Assembly (NCBI RefSeq): GCF_003044035.1
Contig: NZ_NVQC01000038.1
Coordinates: 1-32,000 of the forward strand
From: Candidatus Methylomirabilis limnetica
GTDB lineage: Bacteria > Methylomirabilota > Methylomirabilia > Methylomirabilales > Methylomirabilaceae
Direction of reading: 5' to 3'
DNA: 32,000 bases
A program made the translations under genes and the position numbers. Below are positions 8,295 through 32,000 of the stretch, piece by piece. Under the pieces are notes generated by a model that was not told the origin of the DNA, did no database searches, and saw only the letters and a list, made by a program, of their open reading frames with translations. Each line of letters begins with the position of its first letter. Position 1 is the first letter of the stretch.

Positions 8295-9718
8295 GAGTCA
8301 ATCCCATTCTTAGTTGACAATGCGAAGCGGCCTCCCATGTCTCTTACGCCACATGCTCTTGCCGTTGGGTGCTCGAGGCAATCTCCCGTTGAAGCGCAGC
8401 GCGCAGCGGTGGCAGGTGCCGGTAGCCCTTGATCCGGTGCAGACGCGGCTCGATGGTCAGCAGCGCAGAGGCCACCCAGCGGTGCTTCTGCTCGGAGTTG
8501 CGCCACCGATCACCCTTATCGGTGTAGGCCCCGAGCTGCGCATTGAGCGACTCGATGCCGTTCGTCGTCTTCAGGCTGATGCCCAGGGAGCGGAACAGGC
8601 CCAGATGATGCAGGGTGAGCGTCTCATCCAAGCCTTCGTCGAGGCTTGTGACCGCCGAGGCGTTCAGGAGCCGCAGTTCGGTCCGAAGGCTGAGCAGCGC
8701 CGCCTTCGCCAGGACAGAGGTCGGTTGCTCGTAGGCCGCCTGGAGCGTGCGGCGCCAGAGCGTGCGCTGGCTCTTCGGGAGGTACGCCACACTGTTCTCT
8801 CGCGTATGCCATTGACACCGCTGCACGAGGGCCTGAGACCCGAAGACCGTCAGCAATCGCTGTGCGCAGCCCCTTGGGTCGATGACGCAGAGCAGACCTT
8901 GCTCGATCTGCAGGCCCCGCTCGATCAGCGCCCGGAGCAAGGCTGCGCAGACCCGTTCGTTCTCGGTCGCGGTTTGCACAAAGCCGAGGATGACCTTCTC
9001 CCCGGTCACCGTAATCCCCAGGGCGATGACGATCTCGTCCTCCGCGAAGGTCTTGCCATCGAGCAGCAGGGCAATGACGTCATAGCCGTCCAGCGTGCGC
9101 TCACGGAAGGGCCTGCAGATGCTTGGCGCTCTATCGGATGACCCTCCGGGAGACGGTCGAGGGACTGAGGCCAAATGCCTCGGGCACCGCCTCTGCGCAG
9201 ATCTCATACTGGCGACAGGACAGGCCGTGCAGGATCGTCCGAAAGAGCCCGGCATCCGCGGCCCGTGGCTGCTCGCAACTGCTGGGAGGTACGCAGCGGG
9301 ATCTCTGTGCGCCGCAGCCGATCCCGGACTCGCTGATAGGTGATCGGGAGTGTCTGATCGAGCAGGGAGACCGACCCGCGCTGGTGGGAGCACCGGACGG
9401 CCCCTGGGAGGCTGCGGCTGCGCTGGTACCACTCGCCTGTCAGCGCAGTGACCTCAGCCTTCAAGGTCTCTGCTACGGCCTGAAGCCCCAGGGGGATGAG
9501 CGCTTGGATCAGCGCAATCTTGGCATTCAGATCCTCGAGTGCGGGCACCTTGCTCAGCGCTTGCAGGCCCACGTCTTTGACCTTGCCTTGTCCCTGAATT
9601 CGCATGACTCTTTCATGGAGCGGCTCCTTTTGTCGTGCGGTTGTGGGGTGTCTTTGCCAACACCACTTCATCACGCAGGAGCCACTTCGTCAATTCTCAA
9701 CTAAGAATAGCACACCTT
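8295..9718 (-). mobile_element. Decayed IS256 (Mutator)-family insertion sequence
   Basis: Imperfect inverted repeats are present: 8306-8340 ATTCTTAGTTGAcAATgcGAAGcGGCcTCC against the reverse complement of 9675-9708 ATTCTTAGTTGAgAATtgacGAAGtGGCTCC. A 9-bp direct repeat CGTCATTAC sits at 8286-8294 and 9719-9727. The interior is a broken transposase gene. Confidence 0.75.
8344..9674 (-). pseudogene. IS256-family transposase, disrupted by frameshifts and an in-frame stop
   Basis: Family-like sequence is split over three frames. The first frame gives ALIQALIPLGLQAVAETLKAEVTALTGEWYQR...TEIPLRTSQQL. The second gives DAGLFRTILHGLSCRQYEICAEAVPEAFGLSPSTVSRRVIR, then TAG at 9131-9133, then SAKHLQA. 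The third gives FRERTLDGYDVIALLLDGKTFAEDEIVIALGITVTGEKVILGFVQTATENE...QRCQWH...TTNGIESLN. There is also a local double frameshift around 8845-8880, where KGLRTAIAD is readable only out of frame. Confidence 0.8.
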
Positions 9719-9762
9719 CGTCATTACAGACTAACCAGGCGTACCGTAAGCCCCGTTATCTT

Positions 9763-10330
9763 TCATGGCACCGACGCTTGCAATGGCGTCGCCTCCCTTG
9801 CAGATCGGCTGATAGCAAGGTAACAGATAATGGCTATAAGGAATTGCCCCGTATAGGCAATGCTGGAGGCCAAGGCAGCACCTATCACACCGTATCGAGG
9901 GATGAGGACCAAGTCCAAAACCACTGTGAGAGCCACTACAACGCCCGCGTTAATGGAGTTATAGGCAGGGCGCCCCCCCTCTCCCGGTAATGTCGCTGCT
10001 GAACACCTTGACACCGCCCAGGAGCACAACGCCCGCCAACAGCACCAGCATTGGCATATAAGCACTCACAAATGCCGACGCGTAGATAACAGGTATCGAG
10101 GCAGCTCCCCACCTCTACAGCAGATCCATCCGAGCCCTCACCACATAGATCCACCCCACAGTCATCACCACGGACTGAAGTAGTCCAACGATGGACAGGA
10201 CCTACACGATCGAAATCGTGGGTGCCCACTTCGGGCCGCGCACACAAAGCAGCCCGAGAATTAGGGGAACGTCACCGTAGCCATCGCCAAGAGCGCCCTA
10301 AGATCCGCAGCGCTAACCCGCGGCAAATCG
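9763..10330 (-). pseudogene. Remnant of a second Wzx/MOP-type flippase (C-terminal part only)
   Basis: My minus-strand translation gives GYGDVPLILGLLCVRGPKWAPTISIV(TAG 10202-10204)VLSIVGLLQSVVMTVGWIYVVRARMDLL(TAG 10115-10117)RWGAASIPVIYASAFVSAYMPMLVLLAGVVLLGGVKVFSSDITG. A frameshift near the C-run at about 9975-9990 then leads into RPAYNSINAGVVVALTVVLDLVLIPRYGVIGAALASSIAYTGQFLIAIICYLAI. This parallels FGPKWGEAIRLVQILAFLGVLKSF... of the intact flippase at 12211..13638. Confidence 0.6.
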
Positions 10331-13963: not shown

Positions 13964-14938
13964 TCACCGAATCAACCTTCTCAGGCGCCTATAAACGTGG
14001 TACATCGGATTCTCCCAACGCGATACCTTTACCCGCATTCGGGCGGCTCCAAAGGACTCCTTGAACGCCACAACGCCCGCATGTCCTCCGCTCGGATTAA
14101 AGTCGTACCACCGGTATCCGCACCCGTGAGCATCCCTGATAATCTCGGATTGCAAGAGGTTCGTCGGGCTATACGAGAAATACGATTCTAGCCCGGCACC
14201 ATGCCACCAGACCGCGTGCCAGCCATTCCAGTAAAAAACCAAAGCGCCCGCCACCACCAGACCACGCACTTCGGCAATCCACAGCCGGCACGCTTCACTT
14301 GACTGAGCGTACTCTCTTATGGCTTCGAAAAGTTGCCATGGGTATCTGCTCGTAACACTTCCCCCCCACCGTCGGAGGCTGTCATGGTAGACTGCATAGT
14401 AGGCTTTGAAATCCTCCAGTGATTCCGCGATTCGGACTTTCACGCCCATCTTCACCGCCTTTTTTACACTATACCGATTACCATGGCTGGTTCCTCGAAG
14501 CACCTGATCAATCCCGGCGGAGAGGTCGAGAACGTGCGTGAAGTCGTTACTTGCAAGGAACGGCCTGGGCAGCTCGAACGGCGCATACGGATTCTCAACA
14601 ATCGTCAGTTCGATTGTACGAGGGCCGGTCAGCCTTGAAAGGATAGATTCGATCTCCCATTGAGCGAGACGACGCGTCGAAATAACACCACCGTAAACAT
14701 TTGCTGCAGTCATCGCGTACCCATGCATAAGCCCGCCCAGATGGATTGAAGTTTCGACGGCAGGCACGATCGCCACGCGCTGGTCGTCCAGCAAGAAACC
14801 TCGTGCACATCGACGAACTGCTAGTCCGGCCGTTTCGAAGAGTCTGCCCCATGCCGGCGTGTGGAAAAACGTCGCGTATTCGCAATTTCGCGCGACGTCC
14901 TCCCACAGCGTGTCCGATACCCATCCAAGCTCACGCAT
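13964..14938 (-). CDS. FemAB-like / GNAT-fold acyl(aminoacyl)transferase
   Basis: 324 aa. It contains FFHTPAWGRLFE near the N-terminus and WWHGAGLESYFSYSPTNLLQSEIIRDAHGCGYRWYDFNPSGGHAGVVAFKESFGA, as in FemAB / Acetyltransf_6 proteins found in EPS loci. Confidence 0.7.
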   Translation of the reverse strand: MRELGWVSDTLWEDVARNCEYATFFHTPAWGRLFETAGLAVRRCARGFLLDDQRVAIVPAVETSIHLGGLMHGYAMTAANVYGGVISTRRLAQWEIESILSRLTGPRTIELTIVENPYAPFELPRPFLASNDFTHVLDLSAGIDQVLRGTSHGNRYSVKKAVKMGVKVRIAESLEDFKAYYAVYHDSLRRWGGSVTSRYPWQLFEAIREYAQSSEACRLWIAEVRGLVVAGALVFYWNGWHAVWWHGAGLESYFSYSPTNLLQSEIIRDAHGCGYRWYDFNPSGGHAGVVAFKESFGAARMRVKVSRWENPMYHVYRRLRRLIR

Positions 14939-15654: not shown

Positions 15655-16015
15655 GTGTCTCCCCTCACCCCCCCATCCTCACCTTCCCCCTCGTAGGGGG
15701 GAAGGGACAAATCCACCCACAGCTTCGACCTCTTTCCCCCTTAAAGGGAGATCACACTTTAGACCTCCTCCCCCCTTGAACGGGCCCACAACTGAATAAA
15801 GGCTCATGGTATGAAACTGTGGGTTACAGTTTCGACCTCCTCTTACCCCCCCATCCTCACCTTCCCCCTCGTGGGGGGGAAGGGAAGTGCGGTGGTACCT
15901 TCACCCGGTGGGGGGAAGGGATAAATCACCCACAGTTTCGACCTCTTTCCCCCTTGAAGGGAGATCACACTTTAAGCCTCCTCCCCCCTTGAGGGGGAGG
16001 ATTGAGGTGGGGGGG
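15655..16015 (+). repeat. Composite GC-rich hairpin repeat array (two direct copies of modules A + C)
   Basis: Copy 1 spans about 15668-15780 and copy 2 about 15846-16013. They share CCCCCCATCCTCACCTTCCCCCTCGTrGGGGGGAAGGGA ... CACCCACAGyTTCGACCTCTTTCCCCCTTrAAGGGAGATCACACTTTA..CCTCCTCCCCCCTTGA. Copy 2 carries an extra 36 nt (AGTGCGGTGGTACCTTCACCCGGTGGGGGGAAGGGA). Confidence 0.85.
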
Positions 16016-16051: not shown

Positions 16052-18922
16052 TCAGGCGCTCCGCCTTAATATCGCTGCAATCCTGGCCTGAAGTTCATCC
16101 AATCGGAACGGCTTTGTGATGTAATCATCTGCGCCGGCCCTGAGTCCGGTGACGACATCGTCTTTGTCGCCGTATCCTGTCATCATGATAATTGGGATGT
16201 TTCGATACTGGGGGTGGTCACGCAACGCCTGGCACACCTGGAGACCATTTTGGTCCGGCAGCTTTACATCGAGAAGGATGAGATGGGGGCGCTGACGCTG
16301 GATTCGATCGAATCCGTCGCGGGCGCTACAGGCTGTTGCCACCTCATACGTACCGTTCACGGCCTCTTTCACCAAATCGCAGAGGGTCTTATCATCATCA
16401 ATGACCAGGATGCGATACTTTTCACCAACCTCAGGAACCGAGAATGCAGACTCCTTGAGAGAAGGAGCATAACTCGGGATCATGTCATGTATCTGTCGCA
16501 GAAGGGCGGGCACGTCGCCAACCATCGCCAGAGTTTCGAGGCGGTTAAGACGCTCCTCCATATCCCCGAAGGAGGCCTGCGGCTGCCGCACCGCGAAGAT
16601 CCGGTCATATTCTGACACCAGAACTTCGTCGTCGTCCCAAAGGCTCTCGTGCAACTTCTCCCCTGGGCGCAATCCTGTGTATCGCTTTGTGACTCGCGAT
16701 GGGTTCAGACCTGACGTCAGGGCGAGGTTATTCACCAGTTCGTCGATCTTGACCGGCTCTCCCATGTTCAGGATAAACACGTCCTCCTCGCAGTCCATCG
16801 TACTGCTCTGCAACACCAGTCCAACCGCTTCGGGTATCGTCATGAAGAAGCGTGTCATCTGTGGGTCTGTGATAGTAATGGGCTCTCCATTCTCGATCTG
16901 CTTCTGGAAGAGGGGCACCACACTTCCGGCGCTGCCGAGCACGTTACCAAATCTCACGACAAAGAAATGAGGCGTCCCGCTTAACCCGTGTGACTGTCGG
17001 AGGACTCGATTGAGGGCTATAATGTACATCTCGCTCACCTTCTTCGTCGCCCCCATCAAGCTTTTCGGCCTCACGGCCTTATCGGTTGAGATGAAGACGA
17101 AGGTGTTTACGTCAAACTTCTGCGCAACTTCAGCCAGACGTTTCGTCCCGATGATATTGTTGAGAACCGCCTCTCCCGGATGGTCCTCCAGGATCGGCAC
17201 GTGTTTATAGGCTGCGGCGTGGAACACAACCTGCGGCCTCGTGCGTTCGAATATCTCCGACATGCGTGGAATATGCTTGATGTCCGCAAGGGCTGCCGTT
17301 ACGTTGGCCTCGGGGGAATGTTGTCGGATCTCCAATGAGATGTGGTGCAGGGCATTCTCGGCGCGTTCGACCATGATGAGCGATTCAACACCACAACTGA
17401 TAAGTTGCCGACATAGTTCTGAACCAATGGATCCCCCCGCTCCGGTCACCATGACCCGCTTTCCGCGGAAAAACTCGGTAATCGCCTCTCGGTTGATGGC
17501 CACCGGTTCTCGCCCAAGCAATTCATCAACGTTCACCTTTCGAAGATACCGCAGGTTTCCATCCCCCCGCACGAGCTGGGTAAAAGACGGGAGGGTCTTG
17601 AATTCCAGACCAGCCCCGGCGCAGATGCTGCCGATGCGGCGTAGCCCGTTACCAGTCGCGGTCGAAATCGCGATGATCGCTTCCTGAATCGCATACGTCT
17701 TCGCGATGTCAGGAAGCCTGTCGATTGTGCCGAGCACAGGCCGGCCATGAATGGTCGCCCCCTGCTTTTTGGGATCGTCGTCGACGAATCCGATGAGTCC
17801 GTAACCCGACAACGGATTGCCAAGGATTTCCCTTGCGATCAATTCACCGGTTTCCCCTGCCCCGATAATGACAACCTTGCGGCTATTGGTTGGGGATGTG
17901 TCACTACTCAGGTGTTTAGGCTGAAGGCTGAAGCTCGACCGCACGAGGAGCCGCATCCCTCCTGTAAGCAGGACCGTCAAAGGCATGGTCAATATGAGAA
18001 TCGATCTCGGATAGCCATGCCATCCCATAAGGACCACGGCGAAACCGTGCAGACCTCCTCCTATAGCTGATGCCTTGATAATCTGCCACAGGTCCTCTAC
18101 GCCTGCAAACTTCCAGATGCTCCTATGGGTCCGGAGCGTTACGAAGGATACGAGATAGGCCGCGCAGACAATGGGAAGGCCGTAAAGGAGATGCTGCGTC
18201 TCCTTCTCAGGAAGTGCCCAATCAAACCTGACCATGAAAGCCGATAGGTTTGCCGCAATAACAGCGAGGCAGTCCAGCGTCAACCTCGCATATTTTTGTA
18301 TGTGGGGGGGCGGATTCAGTGTTGTGAGGATCCTTTCCCCTATCGCTATAGGCGTTCGGATTACGTACCAGAGATCACCGGCAAGCGAGCGCGTACGGAC
18401 GTACTCTCGGTCGCTCTCGAGTTTCTCCTGCATGAACTGCTTGGTATAGTGTTCATAGACATCAACTCCAGGAGGAAACGTATCCGACTCACCTACCCAG
18501 GCAAGTTGCGTTGGACCAGTGATTCCCGGTTTGACTTCCAAGATCGCGCGTTGTTCTGGCGTGTACTGTTCAACTATTGCAGGAATCTCCGGACGAGGCC
18601 CGACAAGGCTCATGTCGCCTTTCAGGACATTGATGATCTGGGGGAGCTCGTCGATCTTCAGCAGCCTGAGCAATCTGCCCACCCGAGTGACACGCGGGTC
18701 GGCGTTCCCTGTCAGATGAGGGCCAACTTGGTCAGCATCGACAACCATAGATCTGAATTTCAGAATCCTGAAGGTCTTCCCGCGCCTCCCGACGCGCTCC
18801 TGAGCATAGAAGACTAAACCTGGGGAATCCAGCTTAATGGCGATGGCCACGAGGAGAAAGATGGGCAACAGCAGCACAAGCGCCACCAGGGAGAATATGA
18901 GATCTATCGCCCGCTTCAGCAT
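16052..18922 (-). CDS. Tri-domain fusion: PglC-type phosphoglycosyltransferase + PglF/CapD/WbpM-type membrane UDP-sugar 4,6-dehydratase + C-terminal response-regulator receiver domain
   Basis: This is one uninterrupted 956-aa ORF. Residues 1-200 (18323-18922) have a re-entrant helix, KIDELPQ (Asp-Glu dyad) and LVGPRPE. Residues ~210-785 (16568-18295) have four hydrophobic segments, VVIIGAGETGE, VMVTGAGGSIGSEL, ISTDKAV and GATKKVSE. Residues ~836-956 (16055-16417) have ILVIDDD, LILLDVKLPD (Asp885 at 16268-16270), IIMMTGY and YITKPF. The Shine-Dalgarno GGAGAAGG precedes the ATG. Confidence 0.85.
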   Translation of the reverse strand: MLKRAIDLIFSLVALVLLLPIFLLVAIAIKLDSPGLVFYAQERVGRRGKTFRILKFRSMVVDADQVGPHLTGNADPRVTRVGRLLRLLKIDELPQIINVLKGDMSLVGPRPEIPAIVEQYTPEQRAILEVKPGITGPTQLAWVGESDTFPPGVDVYEHYTKQFMQEKLESDREYVRTRSLAGDLWYVIRTPIAIGERILTTLNPPPHIQKYARLTLDCLAVIAANLSAFMVRFDWALPEKETQHLLYGLPIVCAAYLVSFVTLRTHRSIWKFAGVEDLWQIIKASAIGGGLHGFAVVLMGWHGYPRSILILTMPLTVLLTGGMRLLVRSSFSLQPKHLSSDTSPTNSRKVVIIGAGETGELIAREILGNPLSGYGLIGFVDDDPKKQGATIHGRPVLGTIDRLPDIAKTYAIQEAIIAISTATGNGLRRIGSICAGAGLEFKTLPSFTQLVRGDGNLRYLRKVNVDELLGREPVAINREAITEFFRGKRVMVTGAGGSIGSELCRQLISCGVESLIMVERAENALHHISLEIRQHSPEANVTAALADIKHIPRMSEIFERTRPQVVFHAAAYKHVPILEDHPGEAVLNNIIGTKRLAEVAQKFDVNTFVFISTDKAVRPKSLMGATKKVSEMYIIALNRVLRQSHGLSGTPHFFVVRFGNVLGSAGSVVPLFQKQIENGEPITITDPQMTRFFMTIPEAVGLVLQSSTMDCEEDVFILNMGEPVKIDELVNNLALTSGLNPSRVTKRYTGLRPGEKLHESLWDDDEVLVSEYDRIFAVRQPQASFGDMEERLNRLETLAMVGDVPALLRQIHDMIPSYAPSLKESAFSVPEVGEKYRILVIDDDKTLCDLVKEAVNGTYEVATACSARDGFDRIQRQRPHLILLDVKLPDQNGLQVCQALRDHPQYRNIPIIMMTGYGDKDDVVTGLRAGADDYITKPFRLDELQARIAAILRRSA

Positions 18923-18943
18923 CGCCTTCTCCGGCTCAACCCT

Positions 18944-19225
18944 TTACCCCCCATCCTCACCTTCCCCCTCAAGGGGGGAAGGGATTTCTGAGGGATGGAG
19001 AGCCCACTGCCGCCTCCGCCTTCCGCTAACAAGAGTGGCCCGCAAGGGGGGAAGGGACACCCATTTCGGAATCCTCCCCCCTTGTGGGGGGGGTAATGCC
19101 TCTACTCGCAGGGGAGAACTCCAGACCTCCCGACAGACGGGCGGGGATAAACCCCGCCCCTACACCCCCCATCCTATCCTTCCCCCGCCAGGGGGGAAGG
19201 GAAGTGCGGCGGGACCTGTCCGGAT
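18944..19225 (+). repeat. Mosaic of GC-rich hairpin repeats (modules A, C, P-A)
   Basis: Module A is at 18947-18984 and a C-like hairpin at about 19070-19092. P-A is at 19137-19225 (GGGCGGGGATAAACCCCGCCCCTACACCCCCCATCCTATCCTTCCCCCGCCAGGGGGGAAGGGAAGTGCGG). Confidence 0.85.
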
Positions 19226-19308: not shown

Positions 19309-19509
19309 TTATACGGTCTCAAATTGCAAACTCTTTAGCATTTGCACTGGGACGCGCTTGCTTAAGCCCAGTATCTCAACCCCGACTACGTTGTCATTTG
19401 CATCATAGTCGAGAATTACGCCTGGTTTAACCTCCTCGGACTCGACAATGGCTGACTCATCGAGCCGAAAATATAACGCGTCATTCTTGTGATCCACCTT
19501 TAATCTCAT
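19309..19509 (-). CDS. DUF2283-family small protein (putative antitoxin-like partner)
   Basis: 66 aa: MRLKVDHKNDALYFRLDESAIVESEEVKPGVILDYDANDNVVGVEILGLSKR. Its start overlaps the upstream gene's stop as ATGA. Confidence 0.8.
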   Translation of the reverse strand: MRLKVDHKNDALYFRLDESAIVESEEVKPGVILDYDANDNVVGVEILGLSKRVPVQMLKSLQFETV

Positions 19510-19754
19510 TGCGGCCTCCTTACTCTACGGTCAAAGAAGACAGTGACGATTCTCTGAGGCCGGGCATCCGGATTCACAACAACCCGTAAATATCGTCCAC
19601 CGTGCTGCTCAATAGATCGAATATAGTGAAGCATTCCATCATCCTTTGGTTGCTTCTTCTCGGGATCTTCTAAAGCCAACTCTACCCAAGCTTCTTGAAT
19701 GTTCCGCTCCCTTAGCATATCATAAGCATGTTCAGAGAACTCATACTCGATCAT
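19506..19754 (-). CDS. DUF4258-family small protein (putative toxin-like)
   Basis: 82 aa: FSEHAYDMLRERNIQEAWVELALEDP...GGRYLRVVVNPDARPQRIVTVFF. Confidence 0.75.
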   Translation of the reverse strand: MIEYEFSEHAYDMLRERNIQEAWVELALEDPEKKQPKDDGMLHYIRSIEQHGGRYLRVVVNPDARPQRIVTVFFDRRVRRPQ

Positions 19755-19764
19755 GCCTGCCTAT

Positions 19765-19865
19765 GTGCCGCAGGCGCCGGACCTCCATCCCCCCCACCCA
19801 GAGGGTACCCGGGAGAAGGGATAGGAGAGGGAGAGCCTTCCCTCCATCGGCACCGTTCGGTCACA
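19765..19865 (+). repeat. Degenerate copy of the GC-rich repeat family
   Basis: CCATCCCCCCCACCCAGAGGGTACCCGGGAGAAGGGATAGGAGAGGGAGAGCCTTCCCTCC resembles modules A/ext but has diverged. Confidence 0.4.
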
Positions 19866-19945
19866 TCGTGAGGCGTGAGGAGGAGCCCCTTATGCCTTCC
19901 GATTGAAGAACCACGTAACTTGCTCATCCTCGCTTTCACTCTCCG

Positions 19946-20257
19946 CTATGTCGTAAGGCGGCTAGACCTGTGATTGAGCCATTTCTTGAAAGAGGCCTGA
20001 CTTTCGCCTGAGGGTTTCCCAGCCAATAGACCCTCAACGCTCACATCCTCATCGATGTCTTCCCAGTGGATACCCTGCCCCTCACCAATCAGCCTCCAGT
20101 GACTTCGTTCTTGTTGGGTCGCATGCACAAGGCGAGGGAACCACGCAAGTGGGACTGAGATCGTCCGCCCGTCGCTCAAATCCACGCTCAGCGTATCGTC
20201 GGTTACCGTAATGCTTTCAGCATTTGGAACCTCAATCTCAACTGCCGAAGTAGTCAT
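19946..20257 (-). CDS. DUF2442-family small protein (putative antitoxin-like)
   Basis: It contains ITVTDDTLSVDLSDGRTISVPLAWFPRLVHATQQERSHWRLIGEGQGIHWEDIDEDVSVEGLLAG. The start could be the ATG at 20257, 20284 or 20290. Confidence 0.8.
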   Translation of the reverse strand: MTTSAVEIEVPNAESITVTDDTLSVDLSDGRTISVPLAWFPRLVHATQQERSHWRLIGEGQGIHWEDIDEDVSVEGLLAGKPSGESQASFKKWLNHRSSRLTT

Positions 20258-20474
20258 TCCACGCCTCCATGAATCTTGGGTCATGCTCATTCACGAGTTG
20301 CTGAATTCGACCGATTTCTGCTCGAGTAAATCTACCACTCTTTTGTAGCCGTATCGGATCCAGCCAGAACTTTGCAATTTTGCTGTTCCGTTCCACATGA
20401 ATGTGCGGCGGTTCATCTCGATCGCCGGCGTAGAAGAAGAACCGATACGGGCCAACTTTCAGTACCGTCGGCAT
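20238..20474 (-). CDS. DUF4160-family small protein (putative toxin-like)
   Basis: 78 aa: MPTVLKVGPYRFFFYAGDRDEPPHIHVERNSKIAKFWLDPIRLQKSGRF. It begins 6 nt after the aminotransferase stop. Confidence 0.8.
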   Translation of the reverse strand: MPTVLKVGPYRFFFYAGDRDEPPHIHVERNSKIAKFWLDPIRLQKSGRFTRAEIGRIQQLVNEHDPRFMEAWNDYFGS

Positions 20475-20479
20475 GAGCC

Positions 20480-21673
20480 CTATCTCCGAAGGGTGTGGAG
20501 TGTGTCGTGTACGGACTCGATCACTCGCCCTATGTCGGCATTCGTCATCGCCGGATAGATTGGGAGCGAGACCGCACGCTCGAAGATATGTTCGGCGTTC
20601 GGAAACGCTCCCTGATGGTAGCCAAATGACCGCTGATAGACGGGGTGCAGATGAAGGGGAATGAAGTGAACGGAGGTCCCAATGCCCTTCTCTCCAAGGG
20701 AGCGAATGACCTCGTCTCGCCCACTAGCCAAGGCGGGAAGATTGAGTTGTAAGATGTACAGGTGCCAGGCGTGTGTGCCGTAGTCGGCCTCTTGAGGGAT
20801 CACGCACGTCTCCAGACCTGAGAAGCTCTCGCTATACATCCGAGCAATCTCTCGCCGTCGCTTGTAAAAGTCATCCGACCTTCTGAGTTGCTGGATTCCC
20901 AACGCCGCAGCCAGATCGGTCAGGTTGTATTTAAATCCGAAATCGAGGATCTCGTAATACCAGTGTCCCTTATCGGAGTACCGGTTCCAGGCATCACCAC
21001 TCAGACCATGGAGGCTCATCCGCTTCATTCTGGCGGCATGGTCGTCGCGCATCGTCGCGATCATCCCGCCCTCTCCAGTGGTTATCGGCTTGGTGGCATA
21101 AAAGCTGAAGGCCGTGAGATCACCAATAGCCCCGATCATCTTTCCTTTGTAGGTGGCATGAAGGGCATGAGCGGCATCCTCAATGACGTGAAGGTGATGC
21201 TCCCTGGCAAGTTCCATGATCGGATCCATGTCACATGCCTGCCCGGCGATGTGAACGGGGATGATGGCCTTGGTCTTCGGCGTGATCAGCGGTGCTACCG
21301 TAGCCGCATCAATATTGAAGGTGTCAGGCCGGCAGTCGGCCAGGACAGGACGAGCCCCGAGGTAAGTCACCACTTCTCCGGTGGCGGCAAACGTATAGGT
21401 GGGGAGGATCACCTCGTCGCCTGCCCCGACGCCAACTGCATCGAGAGCCAGATGGAGCGCGGCGGTGCAGGAGTTGACGGCAATGGCATGCTTGGCGCCA
21501 ACGTAGGCGGCAAAGGCCTCCTCGAATTGTCTGACCTTCGGACCAGTCGTCAGCCAGCCGGAGCGAAGCACTTCGACGACTTCGGCGATCTCTTCTTCGC
21601 CAATCGAGGGGAGATGGAAGGGAATCTTTTGTTGTTGTCCGTTCTGCATGTTGTTCACAGTAACAAGCGGCAT
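20480..21673 (-). CDS. DegT/DnrJ/EryC1/StrS-family PLP aminotransferase (PglE-like nucleotide-sugar 4-aminotransferase)
   Basis: 397 aa. It contains AVNSCTAALHLALDAVGVGAGDEVILPTYTFAATGE, VIEDAAHAL and the Schiff-base Lys motif FSFYATKPITTGEGG. Confidence 0.9.
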   Translation of the reverse strand: MPLVTVNNMQNGQQQKIPFHLPSIGEEEIAEVVEVLRSGWLTTGPKVRQFEEAFAAYVGAKHAIAVNSCTAALHLALDAVGVGAGDEVILPTYTFAATGEVVTYLGARPVLADCRPDTFNIDAATVAPLITPKTKAIIPVHIAGQACDMDPIMELAREHHLHVIEDAAHALHATYKGKMIGAIGDLTAFSFYATKPITTGEGGMIATMRDDHAARMKRMSLHGLSGDAWNRYSDKGHWYYEILDFGFKYNLTDLAAALGIQQLRRSDDFYKRRREIARMYSESFSGLETCVIPQEADYGTHAWHLYILQLNLPALASGRDEVIRSLGEKGIGTSVHFIPLHLHPVYQRSFGYHQGAFPNAEHIFERAVSLPIYPAMTNADIGRVIESVHDTLHTLRR

Positions 21674-21742
21674 TTGCTATCTCTTGCCATCCATCACGCT
21701 CTTCTTCTTCTTCCTAGTGTAGTATATCCAACGATTCTTTTC

Positions 21743-21827
21743 AATCCGTTCGCCCTGAGCCTGTCGAAGGGTGAAGTATTTCAATTGGTTCCGTTCATGG
21801 GTTCGACAAGCTCACCACGAACGGATT
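21743..21827. repeat. ~85-bp imperfect palindrome (SLSKGE/FDKLTTNG-type repeat)
   Basis: The outer arms AATCCGTTCG (21743-21752) and CGAACGGATT (21818-21827) match perfectly. The inner arms GAGCCTGTCGAA (21757-21768) and TTCGACAAGCTC (21802-21813) match at 11 of 12 positions. Confidence 0.8.
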
Positions 21828-21875
21828 GTAAAGGTATTTGTGAGGCACTACACTAGAGTCTTGGGCTCATGGCAC

Positions 21876-21985
21876 GTGGGATGGGCGGGGATAAACCCCG
21901 CCCCTACATCCCCCCCATCCTCACCTTCCCCCGCCAGGGGAGAAGGGAAGTGCGGCGGTACCTTCACCCGGTGGGGGGAGGGAAG
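21876..21985 (+). repeat. P-A composite repeat copy
   Basis: GTGGGATGGGCGGGGATAAACCCCGCCCCTACATCCCCCCCATCCTCACCTTCCCCCGCCAGGGGAGAAGGGAAGTGCGGCGGTACCTTCACCCGGTGGGGGGAGGGAAG. Confidence 0.9.
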
Positions 21986-21993
21986 TATGATTG

Positions 21994-22212
21994 TTAGCCC
22001 TTGATAACTTGCTCCTCTATCGGGACCTTGCTTATGAGGAGCTCTTTCATGTCTACTTTCTTGCTAGCATTATCAATGTCGATACCCACGATATTCCCAT
22101 CAACATCATAATCGAGGATCACTCCTTCCGATATCTCTTTGCTGTCAGCGCTGACCTTGCCCGACAAATCTATGTAGAGAGAATCAGTGTCTGGATAGTA
22201 GTTCAACCTCAT
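21994..22212 (-). CDS. DUF2283-family small protein (no DUF4258 partner adjacent)
   Basis: 72 aa: MRLNYYPDTDSLYIDLSGKVSADSKEISEGVILDYDVDGNIVGIDIDNASKK. Confidence 0.8.
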   Translation of the reverse strand: MRLNYYPDTDSLYIDLSGKVSADSKEISEGVILDYDVDGNIVGIDIDNASKKVDMKELLISKVPIEEQVIKG

Positions 22213-22236
22213 GGCTTATACCCCCGATGTCGCAGG

Positions 22237-22373
22237 GGAAGGCTTTACGCTCTCCCGTGGGATGGGCGGGGATAAACCCCGCCCCTACATCCCCTCATCC
22301 TGTCCTTCCCCCACAAGTAGGGAAGGGAGGTGCGGTGGTACCTTCACCCGGGGAGGGGAAGGGAAAGAATCGC
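22237..22373 (+). repeat. P-A composite repeat copy (with GGAAGGCTTTACGCTCTCCCGTGG leader)
   Basis: GGAAGGCTTTACGCTCTCCCGTGGGATGGGCGGGGATAAACCCCGCCCCTACATCCCCTCATCCTGTCCTTCCCCCACAAGTAGGGAAGGGAGGTGCGGTGGTACCTTCACCCGGGGAGGGGAAGGGA. Confidence 0.9.
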
Positions 22374-22424
22374 TTGCCCCGCCGTGCTCATTCCAGCTTG
22401 CGAGAGGAGTCCAGATACGAGCGG

Positions 22425-22724
22425 TTAGGCTCTCTTTGGCTTCGCTGTATGCTTTTTGGGGAGTAGTGGGATTAAACACCGCAAAGCCCTATTTACAGAC
22501 TCTGAGTTTGGGAAATATGCTCGAGTATCCGGCTCTAGAACCACTATGCCCTCTTTAGGCATCACGTCCTTAACAACAGTTGTACCATCTGCCTTACGGA
22601 TAGTCATCGTATACCCAGCTTGCATAGTCCTATAATGTTTACCACGCACTCCACACCTAAAATCATATTCGGTACGCATATCGTTGTCTTCCACCTGTAC
22701 CATTTTAGTCGCCACCTTCTTCAT
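22425..22724 (-). CDS. Small hypothetical protein with antitoxin-like signature
   Basis: 99 aa. It shows the pattern EYDFRCGVRGKHY ... VVLEPDTRAYFPNSESVNRALRCLI, which I recognise from small antitoxin-type proteins but cannot assign to a family without a search. The start could be a later Met, and GGAG lies 12 nt upstream of the ATG at 22724. Confidence 0.55.
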   Translation of the reverse strand: MKKVATKMVQVEDNDMRTEYDFRCGVRGKHYRTMQAGYTMTIRKADGTTVVKDVMPKEGIVVLEPDTRAYFPNSESVNRALRCLIPLLPKKHTAKPKRA

Positions 22725-22742
22725 AAAGTTCCCGCTCCGATG

Positions 22743-22882
22743 AGGTGGAGGGTATACTGGGAAGGCTTACGCTCTCCCGTGGGATGGGCGGGGATAAACC
22801 CCGCCCCCACATCCCCCCCATCCTCACCTTCCCCCGCCACGGGGGAAGGGAAGCGCGGTGGTACCTTCACCAGGTGGTGGGA
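22743..22882 (+). repeat. P-A composite repeat copy (full-length form)
   Basis: AGGTGGAGGGTATACTGGGAAGGCTTACGCTCTCCCGTGGGATGGGCGGGGATAAACCCCGCCCCCACATCCCCCCCATCCTCACCTTCCCCCGCCACGGGGGAAGGGAAGCGCGGTGGTACCTTCACCAGGTGGTGGGAGAGAGGG. Confidence 0.9.
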
Positions 22883-22962
22883 GAGAGGGTCCGATGGCGT
22901 GTAGTGAGCGAAACAGACCGCAAACACACTGTTATCCGAAGTTGCCCGGCTTGTTCCTACGA

Positions 22963-23208
22963 TCAGGCAAAGGCTTTTGCCGGCATCTCAATGTAGCGAT
23001 CTGGTTCTTCTACCTTACCATGAATGGCAAAGAACTGCCGCTCGATTTCCTTGAGAACAACCGCATCGTAGTAGACCATGCCACAATTCAGGCATACTTC
23101 AACAGGGGTATTCGGCACCAGCAAGTATTTCCCCTCGTGGCTATAGAGATACTCAATCCTTCGTTCCTCATGGCGGTCACTGCCGCAGAAATTACACTCT
23201 ATTGCCAT
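22963..23208 (-). CDS. YgiT/MqsA-type zinc-finger protein (putative antitoxin)
   Basis: It reads MAIECNFCGSDRHEERRIEYLYSHEGKYLLVPNTPVEVCLNCGMVYYD, with two CxxC pairs. The likely ATG is at 23208; the track ORF starts further upstream at 23232. Confidence 0.75.
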   Translation of the reverse strand: MAIECNFCGSDRHEERRIEYLYSHEGKYLLVPNTPVEVCLNCGMVYYDAVVLKEIERQFFAIHGKVEEPDRYIEMPAKAFA

Positions 23209-23516
23209 CCTCGTCTTTCTCCTCGCGTCCAAGGGTCAATGAACTTCGGCGGGCGTGGAATGTATACGGTGATAAGTACTACCTTTTCCCCACGCCAGCC
23301 GCATACGACGTGAATAGGTATCTTCCCAGCAAAACCTACGACCAGACAACTCTCACCGCGTCCAATATCAGGATACTGCTCAAGGATCTTACTATTCAAT
23401 AGAGCCTCTTCTACTTGAGCGAAGGTTAATCCGTCCGCTCTCCGCTCAATCTCGGCATGATGGCTGTAAACATACCTGTTGTCGCGAACCCTCGCCTTTA
23501 TCTCTTCAATGTCCAT
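23199..23516 (-). CDS. DUF4258-family small protein (putative toxin-like)
   Basis: 105 aa: RYVYSHHAEIERRADGLTFAQVEEALLNSKILEQYPDIGRGESCLVVGFAGKIPIHVVCGWRGEKVVLITVYIP. Confidence 0.75.
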   Translation of the reverse strand: MDIEEIKARVRDNRYVYSHHAEIERRADGLTFAQVEEALLNSKILEQYPDIGRGESCLVVGFAGKIPIHVVCGWRGEKVVLITVYIPRPPKFIDPWTRGERRGWQ

Positions 23517-23573
23517 CTCTGCTCATAACGATACCCACTACTACTGACGGCTCCCACGTCATGCGTCGCTCCT

Positions 23574-23858
23574 CCTCCCCCCATCCCAGCCTTCCGCCGC
23601 CAAGGGGGAAGGGAAGTGCGGTGGTGCCTTCACCTGGTGGGGGGAAGGGATGCCCATGGTGGATTTTTCCCCCTCACGCCTGACGCCCATCTCCCTTCCG
23701 AGGGGAGGATTCCCTCTCCGACCTCCTCCCCCCTTGTGGGGGAGGATTGAGGTGGGGGGTATACTGGGAAGGCTTACGCTCTCCCGTGGGATGGGCGGGG
23801 ATAAACCCCGCCCCTACATCCCCCCCATCCTCACCTTCCCCCGCCAGAGGGGAAGGGA
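23574..23858 (+). repeat. Mosaic of GC-rich hairpin repeats (A-ext, C, full P-A)
   Basis: The A-ext module is at 23574-23650 and the C hairpin CCTCCTCCCCCCTTGTGGGGGAGGATTGAGGTGGGGGG at 23720-23759. The P-A copy at 23747-23858 is nearly identical to 22743-22850. Confidence 0.9.
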
Positions 23859-23870
23859 TCGGCATCACAG

Positions 23871-25204: not shown

Positions 25205-25592
25205 TTTGTTGAGGGTCGATACCCCGCGGCTTGCCGCGAGTTCGTCATACCGGCGGAAGCCGGTATCCAGAGGGCCGACTGGATTCCGTGTCAAGCACGG
25301 AATGACGGGCCAGAACAGAAGACGATACCCCGCAGCTTGCCGCGGGGCAGTTCATTGGTTTTAAGGTCCCCCCCACCCGTCCCCTCCCCCTCGGAGGGGG
25401 GAGGGTAAGAGGGAGAGTGCGGCCTTTCATGCCCATTGGCGAGTCAAGGCTCATGAGGTACTGCCCCGAAAGTCCCCCTCAACTACCTGATCCGTAGGGG
25501 CGGGGTTTATCCCCGCCCGGTAAGCGGGAGGGCATAAAGCCCTCCCCTACATCCCCCCATCCTATCCTTCCCCCGCAAGGGGGGAAGGGATA
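25205..25592. repeat. Mosaic of at least four small hairpin-repeat types
   Basis: The block contains the hairpins ATACCGGCggaaGCCGGTAT, ATTCCGTGtcaagCACGGAAT and CCCCGCAGCttGCCGCGGGG. It also has CCCCTCCCCCTCGGAGGGGGGAGGG, an inverted P hairpin GGGGCGGGGTTTATCCCCGCCC (25497-25518), the P-like GGGAGGGCATAAAGCCCTCCC, and an A module at 25553-25590. Confidence 0.85.
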
Positions 25593-27961
25593 TCGGCGGG
25601 AGAGTCCGGACTTTCATGCTCATGGGCGTGGGGGGCTCCTGGGGTATTGCTTCGATCATGGTGCCCCCTCGCGACGATACCGTGCCGTTCGGATTTCCGA
25701 TGATAATAGTCGTGATAGTCCTGATAGTACGAATACCCGTGGCTATGCAGATCTATGTTGTTCAGGACGACGCCCAAGATTTTCGCGTTGACTGCGTTGA
25801 GCGTTCTCACCGCTCTTTGAGCGGCATCTCGAACCGTTTTGCCTGCACGGATAACAAACACGGTGCCCTCGGCGAATGTGGATAGCAGGACGCTATCGGT
25901 AAACCCAAGCACCGGCGGCGCATCGATAATCACATACTTGAACTGCTGACAGAGCAGTTCCAAGGCATCCCTCATCCGCTCGGAGCCAAGTAACTCTGCC
26001 GGGTTCAGTGGGGATTGTCCCGCCGGCAGTAGAGAGAGGTTGGAGGTTGCCGTTGGTTTGATGACGGCGCTAAGCTCTGCGTCTCCCACAAGGAAGTTCG
26101 ACAGCCCTGGCGTTCGATCCTGCCCCAGGATCCGGTGACAATCGGGATAGCGCATATCCGCATCGATGAGCAGAACGTCACCGCCAAGTTGCGACAGCGC
26201 GACAGAGAGATTGATCGACACGCCTGTTTTACCGTCGCCCGGTTCCGCACTGGTCACGAGGAGCAGCTTAGGAGGGTTCTCCGGGAGAGAGAAGAGGAGC
26301 GAGGTCCGGATGTTCCGGATGGCCTCACCAACCAACGAGGACTGATCCTGGAGCATGACCAGTTCAAACGACTTCGCGTCCTGGCCGTTGTTGGTCGTTC
26401 CTTTCAGCCGCCTCCTTCGTTCGACGGAGGCTAATGCCGGCACGGCCCCCAGAATCGGCAATGCGAACGTCGATTCTACCTCTTCGATCTTATTGACAGT
26501 GTTGTCAAGGTAGTCGGAGAAGAACGCCAGGCCGATCCCCAGGCCGAGACCGAGGACGATCCCGAGCGTCAGGTTGAGCAGTTTCTTAGGGCGATCGGGC
26601 CAGAGCGGAATTTTCGCCAGGTCAGTGATCATAATATTCGTGGAATCGAGTCCCGCAGAGACAGCCGTCTCTTTCATGCGCTGCAACAGGCCGGAATACA
26701 GTTCGCGGTTGATGTCAACCTCTCGCTTCAGGATGTTGTACTGAATGGAATCCTCGTTGGTCTTGAGGGTCACCGTTTTCTGCTTATCCACCGCTGATTG
26801 GAGCAGATGTTCCGATTTCAGGCCTGCCTCATAACTCGACCGGAGGCCATCGACAACCCTTTGGACCTCACCATCAAGCTTTATCTTCACTTCGTCGATA
26901 TTACTCTTCAGCGCCACCATCCTGGGATAGTCCGACAGGAACGTCTCAGACAGCTTCCTGTATTCGGCCTGAAGGCGGAAATACTCTGTCTTCAAGCTAG
27001 AGATCAGCGGATTTTCCAACACCGATGGGATCGACTGAAAATCCTGTCCCTGAGTCTGCCGATGCAGCGCCTCCTTCGCCAGCCGCTCGCTGCGCGCTTT
27101 CATCAGGGCATCAGTGAGCAGTGAGAGCTGCTTGGTGGTCTGTTCCTGTTTTTCATCTAGCACGAGGTATTGCTTCTGCTTGGCAAATCGCTGAAGCAGT
27201 TCATCAGAGCTCTCGAGCTTGATCCTCACCTCTTGAATCTGTTTCGCCAGGAAGTCGCCGGCATATTTCATCGCGCCCAGCCTCTGCTCGATGCTCTGTT
27301 CGATAAAGTTCTCTGCCATCGCGTTGGCAATTTGGGCGGACAGTTCCGGCGAGGGGCTGAGGAAGGCGATCTTCACCAGGCGGGTATTCTTGACGGGTTC
27401 AATCTCCAGCTTTTTCAGGAAACTCTGCACCACGGGCGATTCGGTGATTGACGCCTCGCCGGAAGCCTGCTGCGTAGACGGCTGAGGGCGTATGAGGTCC
27501 ACAAGATTGGTGAGCCAAGTCCATGTTGGAGAGGCCGGACCTTGCATTCCAGAGCCCAAGAATTCCGGGTTTGCGTCGAGGTTGAAGCGTTTGACGACCC
27601 GCTCCGCAAGCGAATAGCTTGTCAGCAGCTTGTATTGCGTCTGATAATAATCATCGGTCTCTTTGTTGGCAGACGGCGAGACGTCATCGAACTTCAGGAT
27701 CTTGAGTTCTGCCCTGTCGATCTTGATGGTGGCGGTGGCCTTATACACCGGCCGCTGAACAAACGTCGCAGTGGCAACGGTAACCACCGTGACAAGAAAA
27801 CAGGTGAGGACGATCCAGCGATGCTTGAGGAGCACCTGCCAGTAATCCCTGAGATGCGGATCTTTCTTTTGCTCGGGAAACGCCTGGACAGGCCATAGCT
27901 GAGGCTTCGCCAAGCCTCCGCTGCCCCCCTTCACCTTTACGAGCGCATTATCGGGGTCCAT
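25562..27961 (-). CDS. wzc: Wzc/GumC-like polysaccharide co-polymerase with C-terminal BY-kinase domain
   Basis: 799 aa. It has an N-terminal TM segment, a long coiled periplasmic region and a second TM segment (LLNLTLGIVLGLGLGIGLAFF). The kinase domain shows Walker A SAEPGDGKTGVSINLS, LLIDADMRYP and Walker B YVIIDAPPVL, followed by the Tyr cluster GYSYYQDYHDYYH. The last ~10 codons and the stop lie in a repeat. Confidence 0.9.
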   Translation of the reverse strand: MDPDNALVKVKGGSGGLAKPQLWPVQAFPEQKKDPHLRDYWQVLLKHRWIVLTCFLVTVVTVATATFVQRPVYKATATIKIDRAELKILKFDDVSPSANKETDDYYQTQYKLLTSYSLAERVVKRFNLDANPEFLGSGMQGPASPTWTWLTNLVDLIRPQPSTQQASGEASITESPVVQSFLKKLEIEPVKNTRLVKIAFLSPSPELSAQIANAMAENFIEQSIEQRLGAMKYAGDFLAKQIQEVRIKLESSDELLQRFAKQKQYLVLDEKQEQTTKQLSLLTDALMKARSERLAKEALHRQTQGQDFQSIPSVLENPLISSLKTEYFRLQAEYRKLSETFLSDYPRMVALKSNIDEVKIKLDGEVQRVVDGLRSSYEAGLKSEHLLQSAVDKQKTVTLKTNEDSIQYNILKREVDINRELYSGLLQRMKETAVSAGLDSTNIMITDLAKIPLWPDRPKKLLNLTLGIVLGLGLGIGLAFFSDYLDNTVNKIEEVESTFALPILGAVPALASVERRRRLKGTTNNGQDAKSFELVMLQDQSSLVGEAIRNIRTSLLFSLPENPPKLLLVTSAEPGDGKTGVSINLSVALSQLGGDVLLIDADMRYPDCHRILGQDRTPGLSNFLVGDAELSAVIKPTATSNLSLLPAGQSPLNPAELLGSERMRDALELLCQQFKYVIIDAPPVLGFTDSVLLSTFAEGTVFVIRAGKTVRDAAQRAVRTLNAVNAKILGVVLNNIDLHSHGYSYYQDYHDYYHRKSERHGIVARGHHDRSNTPGAPHAHEHESPDSPADIPSPLAGEG

Positions 27962-27982
27962 CTATCTCTATCCTTGACTGAG

Positions 27983-28057
27983 AAAATCTCCCCTCGCCCC
28001 TCTTTTCCAAAGAGGGGTAAATCCTCCCTTTGGCAAAGGGAGGTGAGGAGGGATTGT
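27983..28057 (+). repeat. K-type double-hairpin repeat, copy 1
   Basis: AAAATCTCCCCTCGCCCCTCTTTTCCAAAGAGGGGTAAATCCTCCCTTTGGCAAAGGGAGGTGAGGAGGGATTG. It contains the palindromes CCCCTCTTTtccAAAGAGGGG and CCTCCCTTTGgCAAAGGGAGG. Confidence 0.9.
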
Positions 28058-28060
28058 TCA

Positions 28061-30715: not shown

Positions 30716-30756
30716 TACCCCCTCTCTACGCCATCGGACGGTTATTGAGAAATAGA

Positions 30757-31404: not shown

Positions 31405-32000
31405 TCAGTCCGGTTGTTCTACGATCCGGTAAAGGGTGAGCTGTAACCGCCGACTGATCTTTAACTTATTGAATACATTGCTCACATGGGTCTTAACGGT
31501 CTTATAGCTGATCCCGAGCCGGGCGGCAATCTCTTTATTTGTCATACCCTGAATGACCCACCTCACGATCTCTTGCTCCCGATCCGTCAGGGCCTCTTGC
31601 ATCTCTGAGAGGGGGAGATTCATCTCTTGCGTCTTCTGACGCAAGCTTTCCAGCGCCTCGGCCAGGACCTTGCGCCCCGCCCAGATCTCTCCAATATAGG
31701 TGACCCGGATGGCCCTGATGAGATCCTTGTGGTTGAGTGGTTTCGATAAATATCCTTTGGCACCCAGTTGTAAAGCCTGGCTCACGAACTCATCTTCAGG
31801 CAATCCGGAGAGGATCAACACATGTGTTCGGGAGGATTTCTCGCGGATCATGGGGAGCGCCTCAAGCCCACCCATCTCCGGCATGCTCACATCCAAGAGC
31901 AGAATATCCGGCTGAAGGACTTCCGCTAGCCTTATGGCTTGGAGACCATCCGCCGCCTCGCCGACCACGGAAATGTCGGGCTCTTGCGCCAACAGCGTCC
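31405..32000 (-). CDS. NarL/FixJ-family response regulator (REC + LuxR-type HTH), N-terminus beyond window end
   Basis: It contains ILLLDVSMPEMGG, VLILSGL and GYLSKP, followed by the HTH LTDREQEIVRWVIQGMTNKEIAARLGISYKTVKTHVSNVFNKLKI. The frame stays open to position 32000 (..TLLAQEPDISVVGEA), and the track start at 31992 is just an internal TTG. Confidence 0.9.
   Translation of the reverse strand, partial: TLLAQEPDISVVGEAADGLQAIRLAEVLQPDILLLDVSMPEMGGLEALPMIREKSSRTHVLILSGLPEDEFVSQALQLGAKGYLSKPLNHKDLIRAIRVTYIGEIWAGRKVLAEALESLRQKTQEMNLPLSEMQEALTDREQEIVRWVIQGMTNKEIAARLGISYKTVKTHVSNVFNKLKISRRLQLTLYRIVEQPD

Follow-up and report, generated by a model that had tools for sequence, protein, structure and literature searches.

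A 32,000-nucleotide stretch of DNA from Candidatus Methylomirabilis limnetica (NC10 phylum; contig NZ_NVQC01000038.1, positions 1 to 32,000), hereafter called the window, encodes a fusion protein of 956 amino acids (aa) in which a small phosphoglycosyl transferase, a membrane-anchored nucleotide sugar dehydratase, and a phospho-receiver domain follow one another in a single chain. We propose that this protein is a bifunctional initiation enzyme in which phosphorylation of Asp885, in the receiver, would alter the dehydratase module and so throttle the supply of the committed sugar post-translationally, a reading to which we give a probability of roughly 55%. The protein (PTL34909.1/WP_107564021.1) goes under the database names "hypothetical protein," "Response regulatory domain-containing protein," and "SDR family oxidoreductase."

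The original prediction had described a continuous open reading frame (ORF) made of these three units, and domain searches bore this out, since all four Pfam domains scored above their curated cutoffs (Table 1). Bac_transf (PF02397) covered aa 3 to 192 (E value, 9e-60; 201.6 bits for a cutoff of 27) over profile positions 1 to 175 of 179, CoA_binding_3 (PF13727) covered aa 340 to 430 (5e-9) together with a PglD_N match, Polysacc_synt_2 (PF02719) covered aa 490 to 778 (2e-104; 349 bits), and Response_reg (PF00072) covered aa 838 to 948 (5e-28; 97.9 bits for a cutoff of 30.2). Every motif quoted in that prediction was found at its residue: KIDELPQ at 89 and PRP at 109 in the transferase; TGAGGSIG (the NAD-binding site) at 493, STDKAV at 612, and GATKK at 624 in the dehydratase; and VIDDD at 840, LLDVKLP at 883 (Asp885), MMTGY at 913 (Thr915), and ITKPF at 935 (Lys937) in the receiver. 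The ORF starts with ATG, its N terminus is common to the homologues, and a plausible ribosome-binding site, GGAGAAGG, lies 5 to 12 nucleotides (nt) upstream of the start. An AlphaFold2 model of the protein, built with 88 homologues as input (mean predicted local distance difference test score [pLDDT], 86; predicted template modeling score, 0.55), shows an N-terminal membrane helix at residues 2 to 32, transmembrane helices at 206 to 232, 239 to 262, 275 to 298, and 306 to 332, a Rossmann-like domain, a short-chain dehydrogenase/reductase (SDR) fold extended by two C-terminal helices, and a receiver that has all five strands and five helices of the (beta-alpha)5 fold at 836 to 955 (pLDDT, 79 to 95).

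The N-terminal helix of the transferase contains LLLP20, and the domain further carries KFRSM, the catalytic dyad Asp91-Glu92, and the uridine-binding motif PRP at 109 to 111. Its sequence matches in the PDB include WbaP (1e-29) and PglC (5e-24), and D91, E92, and PRP are kept in 33 to 34 of the 34 transferase-bearing relatives. A GLLLP loop motif and a C-terminal aromatic box mark the PglC subgroup specific for the uridine diphosphate (UDP)-linked sugar N,N'-diacetylbacillosamine (diNAcBac) (PMC10186338); direct reading of aa 1 to 200 did not reveal GLLLP, the region before the dyad reading VGPHLTGNADP. In the dehydratase, the signature T613-D614-K615 is present and M623...K627 replaces the Tyr...Lys of SDR enzymes, both features being conserved in relatives. 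The PglF structure 5BJU matched this part with an E value of 1e-75, and Foldseek superimposed the SDR part on Campylobacter jejuni PglF with a template modeling score of 0.92, a root mean square deviation of 2.1 Å, and 37 to 38% identity. The names of PglF variant structures (T395V, D396N/K397A, and M405Y) point to the residues equivalent to T613/D614/K615 and M623. On these features, this part of the fusion protein is predicted to be a UDP-N-acetylglucosamine (UDP-GlcNAc) 4,6-dehydratase of the PglF/WbpM/CapD type.

The receiver is likewise complete, as had been predicted. In an alignment to CheY, D842/D843, D885, T915, Y934, and K937 correspond to D12/D13, D57, T87, Y106, and K109. The best NCBIfam and PDB matches are receivers of the PhoB/MtrA/RpaB type, with PleD among the closest in the PDB search, and an alignment showed that the GADDY...ARI...RR segment (alpha4-beta5-alpha5) is common to PhoB. 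In OmpR/PhoB receivers, this alpha4-beta5-alpha5 surface is the phosphorylation-dependent dimer face. Asp885, Asp843, and Lys937 are invariant in all 42 receiver-bearing relatives, down to a receiver identity of 25%, while Thr915 and Asp842 occur in 41 of the 42; P938 is nearly invariant, and D932, D933, E943, A946, R947, R953, and R954 are present in 40 to 41. The Thr-Asp-Lys of the dehydratase is similarly kept among relatives. This pattern supports the view that the catalytic and phospho-acceptor residues, all of which are present, are under purifying selection.

We then determined how widespread the architecture is. Among the best 120 clusters of homologues (from a set of some 5.8 billion proteins clustered at 90% identity), 35 have the full order of transferase, four-transmembrane-helix (4TM)/nucleotide-binding module, dehydratase, and receiver, 69 are transferase-dehydratase fusions without a receiver, 9 combine dehydratase and receiver without a transferase, and 7 are plain PglF-like proteins. 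The 35 full-length clusters span 36 to 91% identity, come from many independent assemblies, and keep an uninterrupted reading frame. In addition, the identical fusion protein is present on three contigs, conservation runs continuously across both junctions (near 18320 and 16420), and the guanine-plus-cytosine (GC) content is flat across the gene, so that the junctions near 18300 and 16420, which had been singled out for inspection, are genuine. When the dehydratase tail and receiver were used as the query against 1.84 billion 50%-identity representatives, about 8 true dehydratase-receiver representatives appeared among the top 150, a lower bound, followed by generic multi-receiver proteins. 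A single-protein scan of 185,579 GTDB species genomes returned mostly transferase-dehydratase fusions or separate genes, the receiver-related matches, again a lower bound, being L001 (87% identity, truncated by a contig end) and L007 (an NC10 dehydratase-receiver protein). The architecture, whose rarity the original prediction could not judge, is rare but not unique. According to PMC12802240, a bioinformatic network study of 2021 had already noted fusions of receivers to small transferases. Most homologues sit on metagenome contigs. The 87%-identical proteins L001 (DATMXF010000044.1) and P0013 are found in bins labeled "Patescibacteria group" and "Verrucomicrobiae," which are probably misbinned NC10 contigs.

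The order of the domains, transferase first, had been described as the reverse of that in WbaP-type enzymes. The permutation was confirmed: the TIGR03025 (EPS_sugtrans) model scored 325.9 for a cutoff of 295.55 through two stretches in permuted order, its profile positions 256 to 437 matching the transferase core at aa 1 to 193, and the protein does not follow the WbaP-type order of 4TM, nucleotide-binding domain, and transferase core. However, since the N-terminal 4TM and nucleotide-binding module of PglF is itself homologous to that of WbaP (PMC10942596), the arrangement is best read more simply, as a small PglC-type transferase gene fused head to tail before a full PglF-type gene. In the NC10 locus L007, a separate 203-aa small transferase gene lies 9 kb from a 798-aa dehydratase-receiver gene; the NC10 relative with these separate genes is 38% identical. 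The stretch L007:7314-9209, which separates the transferase/DegT genes of this locus from its dehydratase-receiver gene, holds an integrase-core gene and the gene for a reverse transcriptase/maturase of a group II intron.

These unfused proteins also bear on the question of which enzyme the receiver accompanies. The dehydratase-receiver gene starts only 8 nt after the end of the gene before it in locus L090/L091, and 53 nt after it in L092, which leaves no room for a fused transferase. In a neighbor-joining tree of the nucleotide-binding and dehydratase region, computed without support values, a large clade of receiver-less transferase-dehydratase fusions lies beside a single clade that holds most of the proteins bearing a receiver, whether or not they also have the transferase. 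Four receiver-bearing proteins fall outside the latter clade, namely, the divergent P0085, P0104, and P0107, which are placed among receiver-less sequences, and P0031; they are weak evidence for repeated gain, or repeated loss, of the receiver. The receiver thus goes with the dehydratase, to which it is also joined in proteins that have no transferase, while 69 of the 120 listed relatives combine transferase and dehydratase but have no receiver; it seems to belong to the dehydratase module rather than to the transferase.

The fusion gene is part of a Wzx/Wzy exopolysaccharide cluster carried on one strand. Along the minus strand, the cluster opens, at 29396-32000, with a LuxR-type response regulator, a single-domain response regulator, and a 439-aa protein without a family match, followed by Wza, a Wzc-like kinase, a tetratricopeptide repeat (TPR) protein, and small toxin-antitoxin-like genes. 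Next come a DegT aminotransferase, further toxin-antitoxin-like genes (DUF2442, DUF4258, and DUF2283), and the fusion gene itself, then a FemAB/GNAT-type acyltransferase, a Wzx flippase, an AsnB-like amidotransferase, and a Mutator-family transposase, and finally glycosyltransferases, a DUF2334 protein, and Wzy. A relative with 66% identity (L084) has the same gene order, including the two regulators and the 439-aa protein at the head of the cluster. The free single-domain regulator and the fused receiver share about 30% identity, and it is possible that the former is a partner in the same signaling pathway. FemAB, amidotransferase, tyrosine kinase, chain length, and export models of the PEP-CTERM/exosortase (XrtA) type all scored far under their cutoffs; a locus of that kind was rejected, and the cluster is a generic Wzx/Wzy/Wza/Wzc one.

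A DegT gene adjoins or lies near the fusion or dehydratase-receiver gene in the window, where it is PseC/ArnB-like but under the family cutoff, and the same holds for six of the seven related loci whose gene context could be read. The DegT gene stands directly before the fusion gene in L081, L082/L083, L084, and L085 and directly after the dehydratase-receiver gene in L090/L091 and L092, whereas L086 is uninformative on this point, its fusion gene beginning 285 nt from the contig end. Glycan initiation and production of the initiating sugar had been thought to be physically coupled in this protein. The fusion is real, but the DegT aminotransferase, and probably an acyltransferase, acts between the two activities, so that what is joined is the opening and the closing step of the pathway and not consecutive ones. 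The coupling is one of colocalization and stoichiometry, not of direct channeling, and the pathway logic would be that of the Campylobacter Pgl system.

Putting these elements together, we propose that the fusion protein acts as an initiation enzyme of Wzx/Wzy-type exopolysaccharide synthesis, in which a PglC-like transferase is joined to a membrane-anchored PglF-like UDP-GlcNAc 4,6-dehydratase. The dehydratase would form UDP-4-keto-6-deoxy-GlcNAc, which the separate DegT aminotransferase, probably with an acyltransferase, would convert into a 4-amino- or 4-acylamino-4,6-dideoxy-N-acetylhexosamine, and the N-terminal transferase would then load that sugar 1-phosphate onto undecaprenyl phosphate. 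The receiver hangs on a low-confidence linker (pLDDT of <50 at 824 to 833), a flexible tether of about 20 residues, which speaks for the proposal. Its Asp885 would take up phosphate either from acetyl phosphate or from a kinase whose gene lies elsewhere. This would most likely drive receiver dimerization via the alpha4-beta5-alpha5 face, and dimerization would in turn change the quaternary state or the activity of the 4TM/nucleotide-binding/dehydratase module. Less of the committed sugar would then be supplied, and initiation would in this way be throttled after translation. The architecture, the intact catalytic and phospho-acceptor residues, their conservation, and the gene context are what the analysis shows; the exact sugar, the occurrence of phosphorylation, and the activity that would change, and how, are what we infer here, and phosphorylation-dependent post-translational control is plausible but unproven. 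Two-component gating, as originally predicted, stood as a reasonable view, with a precedent in trans in Myxococcus xanthus, where the phosphorylated form (EpsW~P) of a separate single-domain response regulator was shown experimentally in 2025 to activate the large transferase EpsZ post-translationally (PMC12802240); no phosphodonor was found in the window or the 7 kb beyond it, and the receiver goes with the dehydratase rather than with the transferase.

Several observations weigh against control by Asp885 phosphorylation. First, 69 of the 120 listed relatives have no receiver; since they work without it, receiver control would be an add-on. Second, the single-chain model says nothing on receiver docking. 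Third, since the transferase lacks the GLLLP of the diNAcBac-specific enzymes (PMC10186338), it does not identify the sugar. Fourth, as the original prediction had noted for the window, no histidine kinase domain was found in the scanned minus-strand genes of at least 100 aa, nor was a kinase found in the 7 kb beyond the window end; tblastn of the window with a kinase-like neighbor from a related locus gave no match. That neighbor, a 570- to 580-aa GAF-GAF-HATPase_c protein, is encoded directly upstream of the receiver-bearing gene or its DegT gene in L081, L085, L090/L091, and L092. No conserved histidine was found between the second GAF and the ATPase domain in 48 members; at the best candidate column, 23 of them have His, 16 have Ser, and 9 have some other residue. 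In two further loci, the gene lies ahead of a large transferase that has no receiver (L093) or of an amidotransferase (L094).

HisKA was never found in this discrete family of soluble proteins, which comprises about 54 clusters and whose genes keep a constant place, right after a Wzy_C-TPR gene, in the related polysaccharide loci (L081:7098-8825, L085:7074-8810, L090:8277-9992, L092:6001-7743, L093:6001-7737, and L094:6001-7710). Its members match kinase models over the ATP-binding domain only, NifL being among the weak matches. The missing histidine, the missing HisKA, and its occurrence beside receiver-less enzymes argue against the GAF-GAF-ATPase protein, perhaps a pseudo-kinase or an atypical kinase, as the cognate kinase. 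The gene is absent from both the window and L084, and no orthologue was named from M. limnetica. Because the kinase-like gene occupies the corresponding place in related loci, we also checked the 2.2-kb gap at 21674 to 23870 for a pseudogenized kinase; tblastn was empty, and the gap consists of toxin-antitoxin-like genes and repeats. In the distant relative L082, a PAS-HisKA hybrid kinase lies 3 kb away.

A broader version of the proposal, in which Asp885 phosphorylation would switch, through receiver dimerization, the whole membrane-bound dehydratase/transferase assembly so that one signal would set the commitment of both precursor and lipid carrier and the protein would be a checkpoint enzyme in itself, seems doubtful to us. 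It would have the receiver perhaps acquired more than once and, in some lineages, partnered with the GAF-GAF-ATPase protein without a fixed phospho-histidine, which, if true, would represent a noncanonical signaling link to polysaccharide initiation.

An unlikely alternative is that the receiver does not tune catalysis at all and serves as a phosphate sink, as a localization or assembly tag for Wzx/Wzy/Wzc, or as a reporter binding the GAF-ATPase protein in the manner of NifL or DivL. The lack of a conserved phospho-histidine in the kinase-like neighbor family and the weak match of that family to NifL would fit such a role, and the two additional response regulators at the head of the cluster make a branched pathway with sinks conceivable. 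However, the kinase-like gene is missing from the window and from the closest syntenic relative, and the receiver has kept its active site and dimer face residues as output-controlling receivers do. Covalent tethering to an enzyme is, moreover, typical of receivers that control that enzyme, such as those of CheB and PleD.

More doubtful still is the view that the receiver acts on the transferase step in an EpsW-like way. Once phosphorylated, it would dock on the 4TM/nucleotide-binding module, either of its own chain or of the partner chain in a dimer, and so assemble an active transferase dimer while the dehydratase is not regulated. The transferase that EpsW~P binds and activates does have this kind of 4TM and nucleotide-binding module (PMC12802240), and our model lacks a beta-hairpin after the nucleotide-binding domain and ahead of the domain that follows, an absence that correlates with EpsW dependence in myxobacteria. 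Yet the lengths of this segment were identical in all architecture classes, including receiver-bearing and receiver-less relatives, so that there is no correlation between hairpin and receiver, and an EpsZ-style link between hairpin loss and receiver presence was rejected. Furthermore, small PglC-type transferases act as monomers (PMC12802240, PMC10942596), the 4TM and nucleotide-binding module here is the dehydratase's own, and dehydratase-receiver proteins exist without an attached transferase. Finally, an artefactual origin of the ORF, in which separate genes would have been joined by a frameshift or a collapsed stop, is excluded for practical purposes because 35 independent clusters at 36 to 91% identity keep the continuous architecture, with conservation through both junctions, three contigs carrying the identical protein, and uniform composition. 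No positive evidence was found for it; it was prompted only by the occurrence of such errors in metagenome-assembled genomes and by the existence of separate transferase and dehydratase genes in other taxa.

Table 1. Coordinates of the fusion gene, its domains, and related features in the window
Feature	Position	Strand	Basis or remark
Whole fusion gene	16052..18922	minus	956 aa; transferase, 4TM, nucleotide-binding domain, dehydratase, receiver
Small monotopic phosphoglycosyl transferase, aa 1-195	18338..18922	minus	Pfam Bac_transf, PDB sequence matches
Four transmembrane helices, aa 206-332, N-terminal bundle of PglF-type module	17927..18307	minus	AlphaFold2
Rossmann-like "DUF"/CoA_binding_3 domain, aa 340-450	17573..17905	minus	Pfam PF13727, PglD_N, TIGR03025; PMC10942596
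Predicted PglF-type UDP-GlcNAc 4,6-dehydratase, aa 485-815	16478..17470	minus	Pfam PF02719, PglF 5bju, Foldseek
Flexible linker between dehydratase and receiver, aa 816-835	16418..16477	minus	pLDDT <50 at 824-833
OmpR/PhoB-type receiver, aa 836-956	16055..16417	minus	Pfam PF00072, PhoB/MtrA/RpaB matches; D885 codon at 16268-16270
DegT/PseC-like sugar aminotransferase	20480..21673	minus	PseC 389 bits, under cutoff of 423.5; synteny
FemAB/GNAT-type (Acetyltransf_6), candidate N-acyl transferase for amino sugar	13964..14938	minus	Same family downstream in L084
Wzc-like co-polymerase/tyrosine autokinase of same cluster	25562..27961	minus	Wzx/Wzy export
Single-domain response regulator, 162 aa	30757..31245	minus	Head of cluster; position kept in L084
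LuxR/GerE-type response regulator, cut by window end	31405..31992	minus	217 aa in L087

The remainder of the cluster bears traces of mobile and repetitive DNA. At least 11 copies of a 50- to 150-nt intergenic repeat with C-run/G-run hairpins and the core CCCCCCCATCCTCACCTTCCCCC...GGGGGGAAGGGA were found, at 15659-15997, 18937-19203, 21838-21985, 22219-22365, 22741-22888, 23567-23858, and 25359-25591. Copies of this repeat, which looks like a REP/MITE-type element (repetitive extragenic palindrome/miniature inverted-repeat transposable element), lie on both sides of the fusion gene and also bracket each of the small toxin-antitoxin-like genes. The latter, at 19309-20290 (DUF2442 at 19946-20290, DUF4258 at 19506-19754, and DUF2283 at 19309-19509) and at 21994-23516 (DUF2283 at 21994-22212, a 99-aa ORF without assignment at 22425-22724, a YokU/MqsA-like gene at 22963-23232, and DUF4258 at 23199-23516), interrupt an operon that is tight in relatives: in L081, L084, and L085, the DegT gene abuts the fusion gene without a toxin-antitoxin-like insert. 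The Mutator-family transposase ORF (8344-10250) covers only the C-terminal half of its profile (positions 167 to 363 of 379) and is probably a decayed insertion sequence; it lies in an island with a GC content of 0.60 within the glycosyltransferase block, next to the region at 6001-7000 (the DUF2334 gene), where the GC content falls to 0.40. The ends of the Wza gene carry an 84-nt direct repeat (27976-28059 and 29134-29217; 92% identity), and the long ORF at 28061-29329 probably overcalls Wza, which is 363 aa long in the gene calls for that contig.

How undecaprenyl phosphate and nucleotide sugars are rationed among competing glycan pathways is poorly understood, and the first response regulator that directly activates an initiating transferase was published only in 2025, acting in trans. 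A receiver tied to both an initiating transferase and the committing dehydratase provides "Rosetta-stone" evidence that such control may be more general. It also suggests that the conserved, puzzling 4TM and nucleotide-binding module of PglF-type dehydratases could be a regulatory platform. The fusion recurs in dozens of uncultured bacteria and offers a convenient single-protein system for testing phospho-control.

Comparison with known systems places the protein between several of them. The closest counterpart of its dehydratase part is C. jejuni PglF (WlaL; PDB 5BJU), which shares with it the layout of 4TM, nucleotide-binding, and SDR domains, the catalytic Thr-Asp-Lys triad, and a Met where SDR enzymes have Tyr, and in whose pathway a DegT aminotransferase also acts next; PglF has neither transferase nor receiver, whereas the fusion has the transferase in front and the receiver behind. 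With the small PglC-type transferases, the fusion shares the core of membrane helix, Asp-Glu dyad, and PRP, and it falls into the class of bifunctional transferases with an extra C-terminal catalytic domain, fusions to sugar-modifying enzymes having been cataloged by O'Toole et al. in 2021, as cited in PMC12802240, PMC10942596, and PMC11626204. Unlike these enzymes, it adds a whole membrane-anchored dehydratase and a receiver, and it lacks the diNAcBac marker. Large transferases of the WbaP/EpsZ type are built from the same three blocks, 4TM, nucleotide-binding domain, and transferase core, but in the fusion, the core comes first because the 4TM and nucleotide-binding part derives from the dehydratase gene, and dehydratase and receiver are added.

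In the EpsW-EpsZ system, a receiver controls the first step of a Wzx/Wzy exopolysaccharide pathway after translation, as the fused receiver would do here, and the cluster of the fusion also holds a single-domain regulator gene (30757-31245). In contrast to EpsW, the receiver here is covalently attached, it is located at the dehydratase end, and no Dif-like kinase is known. No description of the three-part chain, or of any receiver-PglF fusion, was found in the searchable literature. In CheB, PleD/WspR, and RpfG, a receiver is tethered by a flexible linker to an enzyme that depends on Asp phosphorylation. Compared with these proteins, the receiver of the fusion is C-terminal instead of N-terminal, and its output would be a membrane-bound two-enzyme module for glycan initiation. 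The fusion is akin both to bifunctional transferases and to response regulators with enzyme outputs and is not categorically new.

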